The notes under the pieces are model-generated. The model had not been told where the DNA came from, made no database searches, and saw nothing but the letters and a program-made list of their open reading frames with translations. From Escherichia virus TH57, in the sequence record MT446422.1: a stretch of DNA of 64,000 nt, one strand, 5' to 3'. The position numbers and the translations under genes are program-made. How positions within the stretch are numbered: position 1 is the stretch's first letter; every line of letters begins with the position of its first letter. Of this stretch, positions 2,082 to 37,518 are shown piece by piece.

Positions 2082-5000
2082 TTACATTTACCTGTGTAGG
2101 ATTAACCGGGTCTCTTGGATTACCAATATCATCTTTAAGACGTTGGTCAACTAATGCTCTCCAATTTGAGAATGTAACAGCCGACTGGTCAAACAGTGGA
2201 CTATATTTTCCACGACGTTGTGACGGTAACAACCCATAGAACATGGAGAAATCATTCTCGGCATCATAATCGGCTGGTAATGGGAATGGTTGACCAGCAT
2301 TAGGAGCGATGTTATATATTGCTTCACCTGTGATAGGGTTTTTCTCAATAGTACCATCAACACCAATCACTGCAACTCGGTCATTCCATTCTGACGGAAT
2401 ACCAGAAGACCATCTATAGTTACTTAATTTATTAATGATTGTCTCGGTGTGTTTAAGAGTCAAACCAACGTTAACAAACATTGTCAGCAACGTAATACCG
2501 ATGAATCCAAATCCAACCGGGTGAACGAATCGCAAAACATCATTACGATAACGAGAGGTTGGAAGGTTTGACTTAATTGTCATTACGTAATAAGAGCGGT
2601 TACGATTAATATAATCGATGTTGTTGCTCAACAACTCTTTACCACGAACACCTTGCACAATCATCCCCTTGAATGAGGTTCTTTCTGATTTAATTTCTTG
2701 CCCAACAATAAAACGTCCCAGGAGGTTATGAATAGTAATACGCCATCTTAATTTACCGTCTTTATAATCGCGCTCCATATAAGTCACATTACTGCGACCA
2801 GTTGCAGTATAAATGGTTTGGCCTACAATGTCTTCACTGATATTATCAGATTCAACTACGATATCATACTCGGTTCCGTTCTTGGATTCGATGTCAATTT
2901 CAACATCTTCATTATACAGCAATTTGAACAGGAATTTATAAGACGCTTCTGTGCCTTTTGTTGCCCAAAAATCAGACTGTCGGGCCTGGAAGAATCGAAC
3001 AGCTTCGTCACGTTTTTCCTTGGAGAGGTAAATGTTGCGTTTGTACATTTCACTCCAGAGGTATTCCCATGCATCTTCCTCGCGTGGATATTGGTTACGA
3101 ATAAGATTCAACAGGTTGTTATAGTATGTACCAGAACCATCACTGATGAACTGCAAATAATATTCACAGAATTTTTCAAATTTACTATCCTGCAAAAGAT
3201 AGCTATCCGGAACCATCTTCGTTAATAATGGCTGCAGGTCAGGGTCTTTTTCCTTATTCTCATTTTCTGGAGTCCATGGAATATCATGTTCCTGGTTTTG
3301 CAGTTCGGCCATAAGCATAATTTCTTTTGGCTTCCAGATGATACGCACTTCATCGCGCACGCGATAGTCAAACTCAAAATAGCCAATTAATTCCCCAGTA
3401 TTTTTATGAAGCATAATCCCGGAGGCATATTTTTTAAAGCCATTGAATTCGATGTTAGGTGCAGTAATCGTTACTTGACCTTTGTTCCAATATTCATGCA
3501 CGATACGTTCCGGGGAAGTTCCACTAAATGTATCGATGATATACTGGTAAAGAACATCGTTATAGACGACCATTGCTCGGTCTGAAGTCGTAATCCAGCA
3601 ACGAGTATCGTCACGTCTTGACCAGTTAAAGAACGGCTCTGCATAGTAAGTCATACGCCCAGGTTTGAACTCTTCAAAGCCAGAATCTTCGCCAGCTCTG
3701 AAACTCATCATCAGGTAATGCTTATCATGTATCCATTGTTCATCGTAAACGTATTTGACTGCTTCGTTAACTTCATCAGGATATTTAAGAGGAAGTTCAG
3801 TATCAGGCTCAACCGAATATTTGAAGTTGCTGGAGCTAAAGAATACTTCGATGCCATCAGTTGACATGCTTGCATAACCATGTTCGATTCGGCGGCGTTC
3901 TTCTTCTGTATTACCAAAAACTCTCGTCCATGTATCAGTAACAGGGTCTAATTTATAAACACCTTTATCCAGAGAGTCAACAACGTTTTCAGGTTTAGTT
4001 GGGTCTTGTCTTTCTTCTTTAACTTCACCTGTAATTAATGCAAACGTATGGCCTTGAACTGAATCCATTTTATAGCAAACTGCTTTAGGGTTCGCCGTAA
4101 TTGTACTGTAACCAGTTTCAAATAGTTTTTCACCAAAAGTCGGAGACCCTGGGGTTGTATCAATCGGCGCATCAGAGGTTTTTGCTTTATATACACGACC
4201 ACGAGCCGCAACATAAATGAACTCATCCGAAACCGTAATAGCTTCTGCTATTTGCGAAATATATGCCGGAAGTCTTGCATAGTTACCGAAGATTTCAATA
4301 TCAAATCCAAGGTTAATATCCGAACCGACTTTAGCAAATGTAATATCTTCAGAACTGAATCGAACATCATCTGCAGACCATCTTATATCGCTTGATTGGC
4401 GACCATAGAATATACGGTCATACCCCAAAACGTAAGTTGTGGTATCAGTCTGGTAATATACAGTTCTTGATACAGGGTTACCGACCCGCTCGTTAAAGAG
4501 TCTTATGTAATACCAGTTCTGGCCTTTGTCATTGGAGACTTTAACCATCGGCTGGAATCGTTCGAACAAATAAAGAACTCCACCGAGTTCAGCAAGCATC
4601 GTGCGGTTTTGGTCAACACAAACTGCTTGAATCGGTCCCTGGATTTCGTGATATTGGTCTTCTTGTAAAACATAGTTCGAGATTGAAGACAAATGAGAAT
4701 ATGCAGAGGTCCATGTAAAGTCTTCGGTCATCAATGAGGCCATAATAGCATCATTGTTAAAGTTGATATATCTCTGATTGTTATTGGTGAATTTTTCTTC
4801 AATGAATTTATTAGCCAAACTAAATTCGCGCATATGTTCAAAAGTATACGCGTTTGTTGCAAAGGTTTCAAATTCTTCGGTGTATTCCCAATCAGACCGT
4901 TCGAAGCCCATTGCCGCAACAGACACGCGCATCTGATAACTTGTTAACGGACGAATATATTCCTGCTCGAACCATTCATTGTCTGCGGTATAACCAAGGT

Positions 5001-16485: not shown

Positions 16486-16560
16486 GGCCCTTTAGCTCAA
16501 TGGGAGAGCTGTCAGCTCATAACTGATAGGTAGCTGGATCGAAACCAGCAAGGGCCACCA
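16486..16560 (+). tRNA. tRNA with CAT anticodon (Met, or Ile if lysidine-modified), CCA encoded
   Basis: Manual cloverleaf: acceptor GGCCCTT/AAGGGCC, D-stem GCTC/GAGC, anticodon loop CTCATAA, T-arm GCTGG-ATCGAAA-CCAGC, 3' ACCA. Confidence 0.8.
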
Positions 16561-16564
16561 AACG

Positions 16565-16641
16565 CGGGGTGTAGCTCAATTGTATAGAGCAACGGTCTTC
16601 TAAACCGTAGGTTGTGGGTTAGAATCCCACCACCCCGACCA
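16565..16641 (+). tRNA. tRNA-Arg (anticodon TCT), CCA encoded
   Basis: Manual cloverleaf: acceptor CGGGGTG/CACCCCG, D-stem GCTC/GAGC, anticodon stem ACGGT/ACCGT with loop CTTCTAA, T-arm GTGGG-TTAGAAT-CCCAC, 3' ACCA. Confidence 0.85.
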
Positions 16642-35167: not shown

Positions 35168-35728
35168 ATGATTATTGAAACGACTGAATTGTTTGGCGAA
35201 CTGACCGCTGAAGTAGTTAATAACGCAATTGAGCTTTGTCAAGAAGACGATAAAATCGTACTGACTATCGCTGATATTAAACCGCTTTATGATTTAATGG
35301 TTTTGGATAGACACGATTATCTTAATGGTCGTGCTAGTGCTCCTATTGATATCAATGATGATATGTATGCCTATATCTATAAAAATGAAGCTGGGTTTAA
35401 TCTGGAAAATGGTATTGAATGTCTGAGCATCAGCGATTCTGATAAATTCTTTGATTGTATTTTCAAACTCTTTCAGGAAGAATGTAAACCAGAAGTTGAA
35501 TGGAAAGTCCCAGGACAAGACGCACTGATTCGTTCTAGCGAAACGTTTGAAGGCGATGAAGAGGAATTAGATTATAACACTGAACTGACTGTGCATCAAC
35601 ATAACGGCCGTGACTTGTTGTCCATTGTCCAAAGACATGACGGCGAAAGTGAAGTAGTATTTACTAAGGACGAGCTAAAAGTTTTAGTCTCTTATCTGAA
35701 CTCTGTTATCCCAACTATGAACGCTTAA
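35168..35728 (+). CDS. acidic hypothetical protein
   Basis: 186 aa ORF with GAGGAAATAGAAA RBS region. Confidence 0.5.
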   Translation: MIIETTELFGELTAEVVNNAIELCQEDDKIVLTIADIKPLYDLMVLDRHDYLNGRASAPIDINDDMYAYIYKNEAGFNLENGIECLSISDSDKFFDCIFKLFQEECKPEVEWKVPGQDALIRSSETFEGDEEELDYNTELTVHQHNGRDLLSIVQRHDGESEVVFTKDELKVLVSYLNSVIPTMNA

Positions 35729-35738
35729 GGAAAATATT

Positions 35739-36191
35739 ATGATTATCAATACAAACTCATGGCACGCTCGTTTCCACGACCGTTTTTATGACCGCCATTC
35801 TCGACCACACTCTTTGTGTGCTTACTTTTGGAAAATTGTATGGGCCTGCTTTATTTGTTCTGTGCTTGCAGGTAGTACAATCTTCGCCTTATCTGCTGCA
35901 GGTGCTGGTATATTGGAGCAGTTCTTTGTATTAAGTATTCCTGTTGGTTTAGGGTTAGGGTTTATTTTAGGACTAGCTACAGTAGCTCTTATTCTGGCTG
36001 TAGCATTTGGTTTAATGTACGGTCTAATGAATTTATGGTCCTGGTACGATTTACATAAAGAAGAAAAAGAATGGAAACGTATTCAAGCTGAGCGTGAAGG
36101 CCGAGAAACTAAAGAAAACGTTTTCATTCAATATATCAAAGCTCGTAAATCTAAGATGTGTCCGGTAATCCATTTTGAGGCGAAGAAATGA
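35739..36191 (+). CDS. multi-pass membrane protein
   Basis: Several hydrophobic helices; translationally coupled (ATGA) to the downstream nucleotidyltransferase-fold gene. Confidence 0.55.
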   Translation: MIINTNSWHARFHDRFYDRHSRPHSLCAYFWKIVWACFICSVLAGSTIFALSAAGAGILEQFFVLSIPVGLGLGFILGLATVALILAVAFGLMYGLMNLWSWYDLHKEEKEWKRIQAEREGRETKENVFIQYIKARKSKMCPVIHFEAKK

Positions 36192-37198
36192 GAACAGTTA
36201 TGAAAGGCTACTTCGGTAGCCATCTTTATGGAACAAGTACTCCTGAATCTGATGTCGATTTTAAGGAAATCTTTGTTCCACACCCACGTGATATTCTGTT
36301 AGGTACGGCTATGAACCATACCAACTTGAACACGAATAATACGGCATCCAAAAACACTAAAGACGATGTTGACCACGAGCTTTATAGTCTGAAATATTTC
36401 TTTAAACTGGCGGCTGAAGGCGAAACTGTTGCTCTGGACATGATTCACACTCCGGCTAACCTGGTAGTCAAATCCGATTTACCAGATGTATGGAAATTTA
36501 TCCAAGACAACCGTTCACGGTTCTATACAACTAACATGAAAGCCTATTTGGGGTATGTCCGTAAGCAAGCTTCAAAATATGGTGTTAAAGGTTCTAGACT
36601 GGCTGCTCTGCGTGGTGTACTGGCAATTGTTAACCAGATTCCTGAACAGTGGGTCGATTATCAAGAAGATGGTTCTGTTAAACAGCGTCGAACTAAGGTA
36701 GAAGATATTAAGCACCGACTCCCTGAAAACGAGTTCTGTGAATGGGTATTTCATAACCATGAGAAAACAGGTCCTCAAACGTTCTATACTGTCCTCGGTC
36801 GTAAATACCAAACCACTTTGTCGTTAATCGAGCTTAAGCAATCTCTGAATAAGCTTGATTCTGAATATGGTGAACGTGCTCGCAAGGCCGAAGCCAATGA
36901 AGGTATTGACTGGAAAGCTCTGAGCCACGCTTATCGTGCTGGATATCAGTTGAAGGAAATTTATATGACCGGTGACCTTCAATATCCTTTACGAACAGCC
37001 CCATTTATCCTTGAAATCAAACAAGGCCTACACGCTTTTAAAGATGTACAAGCTGAACTTGAAGCAATCGTCGATGAAGTCGAAACCAATGCCATCTGGG
37101 CGGCCAAGAACGGCATGCCAGACAAGGTAGACATGAAGTTCTGGGACAAGTTTGTTGAAGAGGTATATCTTGACAACCACAATTCCTATTATTGTTAA
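36188..37198 (+). CDS. Pol-beta-superfamily nucleotidyltransferase-fold protein
   Basis: N-terminal GS-x11-DxD motif (GSHLYGTSTPESDVDF) typical of the NTase fold; 336 aa. Confidence 0.55.
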   Translation: MRTVMKGYFGSHLYGTSTPESDVDFKEIFVPHPRDILLGTAMNHTNLNTNNTASKNTKDDVDHELYSLKYFFKLAAEGETVALDMIHTPANLVVKSDLPDVWKFIQDNRSRFYTTNMKAYLGYVRKQASKYGVKGSRLAALRGVLAIVNQIPEQWVDYQEDGSVKQRRTKVEDIKHRLPENEFCEWVFHNHEKTGPQTFYTVLGRKYQTTLSLIELKQSLNKLDSEYGERARKAEANEGIDWKALSHAYRAGYQLKEIYMTGDLQYPLRTAPFILEIKQGLHAFKDVQAELEAIVDEVETNAIWAAKNGMPDKVDMKFWDKFVEEVYLDNHNSYYC

Positions 37199-37204
37199 AT
37201 TCTA

Positions 37205-37229
37205 AGGACCCTTCGGGGTCCTTTTTTTA
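37205..37229 (+). terminator. rho-independent terminator
   Basis: AGGACCC-TTCG-GGGTCCT hairpin followed by TTTTTTT. Confidence 0.65.
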
Positions 37230-37241
37230 TTTTAAAAAGTA

Positions 37242-37311: not shown

Positions 37312-37518
37312 ATGTTAGAATTAATCAAAGCTGCTGGTGAAAAAGGTCTGATGGTTAACACTCGTGACCCTGAACAACGTCAAGCATTTGGTGAGTTAAA
37401 AGCCAAAGGTCTGGTTAAAGCATCCCTTGGTATTGGCAATGCTTTGCGTGTGACTTTGACCCCTGCAGGTAAAGCAATGTTCTTCCCTAAACCATTACCA
37501 AAACGTCGTCGCAAGTGA
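37312..37518 (+). CDS. small basic protein
   Basis: 68 aa ORF after promoter cassette; basic C-terminus KRRRK. Confidence 0.5.
   Translation: MLELIKAAGEKGLMVNTRDPEQRQAFGELKAKGLVKASLGIGNALRVTLTPAGKAMFFPKPLPKRRRK

Follow-up and report, generated by a model that had tools for sequence, protein, structure and literature searches.

A phage branch of the RlaP nucleotidyltransferase family and its separable membrane-protein neighbour in Escherichia virus TH57

Does an overlap of four nucleotides between two phage genes mark a shared function? In the 64,000-nucleotide stretch of Escherichia virus TH57 DNA analysed here (MT446422.1; hereafter the window), a gene for a 150-residue membrane protein (35739..36191, + strand) runs into a gene for a 336-residue protein with a nucleotidyltransferase (NTase) motif (36188..37198, + strand). 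A first-pass annotation made from the sequence alone had drawn both open reading frames (ORFs) and their ATGA overlap in this way, and we found them as described, with the NTase ATG at 36188-36190 and the membrane-gene TGA at 36189-36191 (overlap 36188..36191, + strand). It had also compared the pair to membrane-plus-NTase signalling or toxin modules, and this comparison was not supported. We conclude that the NTase belongs to a phage branch of the RlaP family, a new copy of a known enzyme whose identity is already in the literature, and that the gene pair is a common but dispensable neighbourhood and not an obligate module.

The 336-residue protein matched the Pfam family RlaP (PF10127) with an E value of 1.1e-10 and 42.1 bits, compared with a curated gathering cut-off of 23. 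It also matched PHROG 388, labelled 'nucleotidyltransferase', with an E value of 3.5e-132. All 120 close homologs among the matches listed carry a precomputed PF10127 match. The T4 ortholog is NrdC.11, which is 82.7% identical in amino acid sequence and equal in length; its gene occupies the equivalent genome position after mobD.1 and runs in the same direction. Homologs are present in 1547 phage records, and a search of 1.84 billion cluster representatives returned 3057 relatives at E values up to 0.001. As an enzyme, the NTase is ordinary, being one more copy of T4 nrdC.11, which others have already assigned to RlaP. Nolan et al. 2006 had noted that nrdC.11 matches the NTase group COG3541. 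Many NrdC.11 orthologs in GenBank and UniRef are named 'thioredoxin', and one is named 'HNH homing endonuclease', where the protein is a PF10127 nucleotidyltransferase. The name 'thioredoxin' apparently spread from the label of the neighbouring gene, nrdC, and is an annotation error that deserves correction.

The N-terminal motif had been read in the first pass as GS-x11-DxD. The motif is present, but its spacer is ten residues by count (F9 G10 S11, ten residues, D22 V D24 F), which is still within the canonical range of 9 to 13. The segment conforms to the Pol-beta pattern hG[GS]-x9-13-Dh[DE]h and is flanked by predicted strands 2-9 and 23-30; the codons from G10 to D24 lie at 36215..36259 (+ strand). 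We aligned 93 diverse homologs that are 35-82% identical to the query. Invariant in all of them are G10, S11, S21, D22, D24, N56, Y131, K243, H247, R250, P267, K278, and G280, and thus the four motif residues G10, S11, D22, and D24. The column of D62 is acidic throughout (D in 92, E in 1) and stands at the start of predicted strand 61-67. D60 (90/93) and D84 (89/93) are alternatives, but we infer that D62, with its codon at 36371..36373 (+ strand), is most likely the third catalytic carboxylate.

The AlphaFold model of the NTase had a predicted local distance difference test score (pLDDT) of 93.9 and a predicted template modelling score of 0.81. It has the core fold of the Pol-beta NTases, and these are the structures that it resembles most closely. 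An N-terminal alpha/beta NTase domain is followed by a beta-rich segment (residues ~154-208), by helices between residues 213 and 307, and by a last helix at 316-335. The top structural match, and the closest solved structure, is HalB. Searching the PDB with the single sequence gave no match at E values up to 10, and the only match to the 93-sequence profile was helical and due to chance (7vkk, E 0.08). The PfRlaP structure was not found by these searches; it is evidently missing from the PDB set that was searched or is too distant. The first pass had proposed the Pol-beta superfamily, and this assignment is right.

Among the families that the first pass had named within this superfamily, RlaP fits and the others are not supported. 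For a CD-NTase of the CBASS type, we found no PADLOC match at E values up to 1, no such Pfam family, and no CD-NTase among the structural matches. Nor is an MNT toxin or antitoxin supported. The NCBIfam MntA model scored 13.1 bits over 18 residues against a cut-off of 60, the protein has 336 residues compared with about 100-140, and its neighbour is not a HEPN protein.

RlaP was reportedly named by Burroughs and Aravind in 2016. Comparative work had predicted that the enzyme restores nucleotides lost before ligation, for example after RloC. This nuclease excises the wobble base (PMC2610378). In December 2025, the Pseudomonas enzymes PfRlaP and PaRlaP were described to add one or two nucleoside monophosphates to the 3'-OH of RNA, with a preference for a cleaved-tRNA mimic (PMC12776372; bioRxiv 10.64898/2025.12.29.696909). 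The same study found that RlaP enzymes labelled neither DNA nor protein. In their fold, the NTase domain is followed by a helical domain and then by a C-terminal helix, and three aspartates are conserved (PMC12776372). The NTase studied here shares with PfRlaP and PaRlaP the Pfam family, the N-terminal Pol-beta NTase domain, and probably the three conserved acidic residues; its predicted secondary structure places a helical domain and a closing C-terminal helix in the order described for PfRlaP. Its relatives are also linked to RNA ligases: in contig L160, in L168, and in phage phiN3.

We therefore regard it as probable that the NTase is an RlaP-type adder of nucleotides to RNA 3' ends that acts with Pnkp and Rnl1, and that the membrane protein is a separable neighbour. 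By analogy with its relatives, the NTase would likely target tRNA halves from which a host anticodon nuclease, besides cutting, has taken out a nucleotide. After the addition, the phage Pnkp and an RNA ligase would rebuild a working tRNA. The proposed role would thus be an extra step in the T4 pathway of Pnkp and Rnl1/Rnl2, the counter to PrrC. Genes for the partners exist in the lineage, with pseT and rnlA lying about 85 kb from nrdC.11 in VR7. In L160, such partners are clustered with the NTase. Family membership, fold, conserved catalytic residues, T4 orthology, separability from the membrane gene, and the repair neighbourhoods of relatives all support this reading. If NrdC.11 does restore the nucleotides removed by RloC, it would explain how phages could counter wobble-base excision, which has been a question since RloC was described.

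Several points weigh against this view. T4 Pnkp and Rnl1 suffice against PrrC. The classical route needs no nucleotide addition, and an added nucleotide would matter only after base-excising nucleases such as RloC (PMC2610378). In T4, a genome-reduction study found that the nrdC.11-mobD.3 block can be deleted. The Pfam match covers only residues 8-135, aligned to profile positions 25-143 of 249, and the beta-rich insert at ~154-208 of the model falls outside the covered part; in both respects the NTase differs from PfRlaP and PaRlaP. T4NrdC.11 lies within the PF10127 similarity network, but in a separate cluster (cluster 5, compared with cluster 1a for the Pseudomonas enzymes) that is described as 'RlaP of unknown function' (PMC12776372). 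The biochemistry concerns PfRlaP and PaRlaP only, so that RNA end-addition by the NrdC.11 branch is a prediction from these relatives. HalB, the closest solved structure, makes DNA oligomers, and by this analogy the substrate of the NTase could differ. Finally, the window holds no RNA-repair gene, Pnkp and Rnl1 being about 85 kb away in the lineage, and, as a further difference from PfRlaP and PaRlaP, this phage is linked to 5'-phosphate ligases (Rnl1) and not to an RtcB operon.

The NTase could have another target. It might AMPylate a host or phage protein, nucleotidylate a small molecule, or act on intact tRNA 3' ends, either in CCA-type repair or to block them. In that case the membrane gene would be an unrelated neighbour, for example a superinfection-exclusion or lysis-timing protein. 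The C-terminal helical bundle of the model resembles HEPN or KNTase-C-type substrate-binding domains, the locus lies in a variable early region rich in host-takeover genes (2-3 kb from rI), and genes of the CCA-adding or poly(A) polymerase type are found near the NTase in two loci, all of which would fit such a role. However, the labelling results for RlaP enzymes speak against protein and DNA, and the repair genes near the NTase in L160, L168, and phiN3 favour broken RNA as the substrate. We consider another target unlikely.

We then asked what the first gene of the pair encodes. Its product matched PHROG 944, labelled 'membrane protein', with an E value of 2e-55. Pfam gave no family for it, only sub-threshold noise (NIPSNAP, a holin family, and STING_TM), and PADLOC and NCBIfam gave nothing usable. 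The protein has a single hydrophobic block at residues 28-100, preceded by a basic N terminus and followed by a strongly charged C terminus with 13 lysine or arginine residues. Its AlphaFold model, of moderate confidence (pLDDT 72.5), contains two long helices, at residues 26-61 and 67-119, and an N-terminal strand (2-4) that pairs with a C-terminal strand (145-147). The membrane location given in the first pass therefore stands, whereas the multi-pass topology gives way to a two-helix hairpin. Because of this model and the charge distribution, we suggest that both ends of the hairpin are cytoplasmic and joined in one small domain. A Foldseek search of the PDB with the model found nothing similar (best E value 1.8), which is a weak negative given the moderate quality of the model.

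A single-sequence search with the membrane protein reached only relatives of at least 58% identity, and an alignment query was needed to find more. By tblastn, 1115 phage records contain the family, and about 120 Pseudomonas phages are among them; a metagenome scan added few further long contigs. In alignments of diverse members (A1 and A4), the two ends of the protein are conserved and the membrane core is not. S7, W8, H9, L26, C27, Y29, and C141 are invariant, and P142 and K139 nearly so. The N-terminal motif is MxINxNSWH...SLCxYFW and the C-terminal motif is [FY][IL]KA[RK]KxKxCPx[IL]x[FY]. H9, C27, and C141 could bind a metal. The membrane protein changes faster than the NTase, with 26-36% identity between genera compared with 68-83%.

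The membrane family is nearly confined to phages. Among genomes sampled as one per species for 185,579 species, we found three matches, all in metagenome bins, which rules out a bacterial-operon context. A Saccharibacteria metagenome bin (L176, 5001-5831) has the N-terminal motif in a 276-residue ORF beside ribosomal protein S2. The match covers residues 1-67 only, and the ORF may be a chance hit or a partial relative.

Are the two proteins bound to each other as parts of one system? The overlap itself is a poor guide. By a crude gene call, the same 4-nucleotide ATGA-type overlap joins 15 of 105 same-strand neighbour pairs in the window, and 49 of the 105 overlap in some way. The overlap alone therefore says little about functional pairing, and we ascribe it to the tight gene packing that is typical of T4-like early regions. 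The two genes do occur together, so that the outcome by which the first pass would have been refuted, a pair that never co-occurs, was not observed: in most Tevenvirinae-like phages they are linked on the same strand. We surveyed 78 NTase loci from IMG/VR, with NTases of 42-99% identity. The membrane gene directly abuts the NTase gene in 12 of these and lies 0.3-2.6 kb upstream on the same strand in 33, while in the remaining 33 we found none within 5 kb. Other T4-like genera have one to three genes or a homing endonuclease gene in between, the intervening products being PHROG 10164, PHROG 7981, or an HNH homing endonuclease. Where genes intervene, the NTase gene keeps an ATGA-type overlap with whichever gene is upstream.

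In T4, the gene directly upstream of nrdC.11 is mobD, for an HNH homing endonuclease, whereas in this phage and in VR7 the membrane gene holds that slot. We scanned the T4 genome in six frames, all but 362 bp of it, with two hidden Markov models of the membrane family at E values up to 10 and found no member. Two Aeh1-like genomes have both genes, but 70-150 kb apart. Conversely, among about 66 membrane-family phage loci, of which 64 came from IMG/VR and the others from phages K8 and pEa_SNUABM_49, 36 lack an NTase within 5 kb. The pair is thus not obligate, because the T4 NTase stands alone, other genes intervene, 33 of the 78 loci lack the membrane gene, and the membrane family occurs without the NTase. 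These same facts, including the many phages that have the membrane family and no NTase, leave the signalling or toxin module without support.

The boundary between the membrane gene and nrdC.11 is an insertion site for homing endonucleases: a close relative (L003/L034/L097, IMG/VR 2706795394) has an HNH gene of PHROG 655 between them, and in the T4 locus (L001, 3238-4017) mobD sits in the junction and the membrane gene is gone. Another locus (L144) has tandem membrane-family copies (3712-4206 and 4203-4592), the nearer of which ends about 0.4 kb before the NTase gene. On a 150 kb viral contig (L057, 5478-6509), a membrane-family gene is followed by a gene for a 343-residue PHROG 24943 'DNA polymerase' with the motif FGDIDVLV, which is Pol-beta-NTase-like. 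This 343-residue protein had no profile similarity to NrdC.11 and matched no PDB chain.

The order of the genes, a membrane protein and then a Pol-beta NTase, is also that of the Hailong pair halA-halB. Such a likeness would suggest that the NTase gates or otherwise controls the membrane protein through an oligonucleotide or nucleotide signal of its own making. The pair would then act as a toxin carried by the phage, as a means of exclusion, or to decoy a host Hailong system. HalB is the top structural match, its catalytic aspartates (D21 and D23) stand at nearly equal positions, and the membrane protein has a basic, conserved C terminus to which nucleic acid could in principle bind. However, we detected no sequence similarity to HalB, even with the 93-sequence profile at E values up to 1, and no PADLOC match. 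The membrane model, of moderate confidence, matched nothing in the PDB, although HalB entries are present there. Compared with HalB, the NTase has 120 additional residues and differs in its C-terminal half. Its family, RlaP, acts on RNA ends and extends RNA, whereas HalB makes protein-primed oligo-dA. Moreover, the pair is separable in nature (T4 and the 33 loci), and it is carried here by a virulent phage, whereas Hailong is encoded by the host. We consider a Hailong-like or other nucleotide-signalling pair very improbable, and keep to an RNA 3'-end adder with a separable neighbour.

Membrane genes without an NTase still frequently have RNA-repair genes as neighbours. T4 Pnkp and Rnl2 sequences served in local BLAST as pointers only, and every match that we used was confirmed by Pfam. 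In five or more phage lineages that are distant from one another, members of the family adjoin this NTase or genes for RNA ligases or polynucleotide kinase/phosphatases. Among loci with the NTase, the 8.5 kb contig L160 has Rnl1, the membrane gene, ThyX, a metallophosphoesterase, a P-loop kinase, and, overlapping the kinase gene, an RlaP of the NrdC.11 type. In L168 and phage phiN3, RNA ligases are 1-4 kb from the NTase. Six Pakpunavirus loci have a helix-turn-helix protein, the membrane gene, an Rnl1-type ligase (PF09511) 12 bp downstream, and a P-loop kinase (AAA_33/CLP1-like), with a metallophosphoesterase two genes upstream of the membrane gene. In L183, an RNA ligase with PF09414 and an OB-fold begins 83 bp downstream of the membrane gene. 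In L073, 10 bp separate the membrane gene from a downstream gene for a Pnkp-type HAD phosphatase, and a PF09414 ligase is encoded 3.8 kb upstream; in L077, both neighbours are upstream, Pnkp at 1.2 kb and Rnl1 at 3.3 kb. Between these repair-linked lineages, the membrane proteins share only 25-36% identity. This recurrence points to RNA repair and not to signalling.

The two genes might accordingly form a functional unit within RNA repair, with the NTase and other repair enzymes recruited to the inner membrane by the membrane protein, regulated by it, or served by it as a sensor there. A possible setting would be the entry site of a tRNase toxin or the stalled translation of membrane proteins. 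Same-strand linkage, with the membrane gene 0-2.6 kb upstream, is seen in 45 of the 78 surveyed loci. It persists over deep divergence and extends to Acinetobacter phages and to L156, where the NTases are only 44-52% identical. The membrane gene is also duplicated around the NTase gene, in tandem in L187 (4001-4432 and 4443-4862, upstream of the NTase gene and directly abutting it) and on both flanks in L156 (3931-4413 and 6312-6734). Furthermore, the family adjoins four different repair enzymes in separate lineages. On the assumption that 1.5-3% of phage genes serve RNA repair (4 of 271 features in T4), we obtained a rough binomial P of 0.0001-0.02, depending on that background, for 4-5 direct adjacencies among about 34 lineages, uncorrected for phylogeny and for the clustering of accessory genes.

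On the other side, all four repair enzymes are encoded by T4, which lacks the membrane family, and the two genes are far apart in the Aeh1-like genomes. Synteny is generally conserved among T4-like phages, so linkage within the group amounts to about one event, and the lineage count and background rate are crude. The adjacency to repair genes is suggestive only. The 162 membrane-family loci fall into 55 clusters at 45% identity, of which about half have no recognised repair neighbour, many being on short contigs; and the proposed link between the family and RNA repair is guilt by association only. We consider a functional unit doubtful, and we prefer the NTase as an RNA 3'-end adder beside a phage-specific inner-membrane protein that would be a frequent but dispensable neighbour of phage RNA-repair genes.

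The idea also has a broader form. The PHROG 944 membrane protein may tentatively be viewed as an unrecognised accessory of phage RNA-repair modules, which would work with the RlaP NTase, with Rnl1/Rnl2-type ligases, and with Pnkp-type kinase/phosphatases, a suggestion that we would sooner question than assert. It could, for example, anchor tRNA repair to the inner membrane, activate it there, or sense the attack that calls for repair. To our knowledge, phage tRNA repair has so far been regarded as purely cytoplasmic, and we know of no membrane component described for the T4 pathway. We found no description of the recurrence of this family beside four different RNA-repair enzymes in the searchable literature. 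That recurrence, in distant phages, makes the family a concrete candidate for a missing part of phage tRNA repair.

Genes of NAD (nicotinamide adenine dinucleotide) salvage also recur within a few kb of the membrane-family gene or the NTase gene. These encode NAMPT/NAPRTase, phosphoribosyl pyrophosphate synthetase, and NMNAT-Nudix proteins, and we found them in L029, L077, L088, L147, L170, L142, and relatives. Their recurrence suggests another explanation for the proximity, namely that such genes share accessory or counter-defence islands.

The window comes from a VR7-like phage of the T4 type (Gaprivervirus). DNA of this region is 90-92% identical to that of Escherichia phages P479, VR20, and VR7 (Gaprivervirus, Tevenvirinae), and in VR7 the corresponding three genes are labelled mobD.1, ORF102c 'membrane protein', and nrdC.11 'nucleotidyltransferase'. 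The upstream gene, an ortholog of mobD.1 (y05I-like; 35168..35728, + strand), matched the Pfam families T4_y05I_N (E 6e-37) and T4_y05I_C (E 1.6e-19). A Shine-Dalgarno-like AAGGA (35727..35731, + strand) stands 7 nt 5' of the ATG of the membrane gene. The NTase gene has a Shine-Dalgarno-like GAGG (36177..36180, + strand) inside the 3' end of the membrane gene. Six nucleotides 3' of the NTase stop codon, a hairpin with a T-run that resembles an intrinsic terminator (37204..37231, + strand) ends the gene string. The three genes and this terminator would thus form a co-transcribed early string. The opposite strand has no competing ORF longer than 79 residues across the two ORFs. The segment 37199-37311 contains the terminator, and a PHROG 6001 gene follows at 37312. 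This junction is unlike that of VR7, which has two additional small ORFs, ORF100c and ORF099c, between nrdC.11 and the next conserved gene (L002, 6012-6596).

Codons 7-12 of the NTase gene contain a 6-bp hairpin with a UUCG loop (36206..36221, + strand). The hairpin, GGCUAC-UUCG-GUAGCC, is perfect, has an estimated energy of about -9 kcal/mol, and begins 18 nt past the start codon. It is conserved without change in several genera with NTases of only about 68% identity. T4/T2-type phages and others do not have it and encode the same residues with other codons. Elsewhere in the window, genes for tRNA-Met (CAT; 16486-16560) and tRNA-Arg (TCT; 16565-16641) are adjacent on the + strand, and these two are the sole Rfam and ARAGORN matches in the window.

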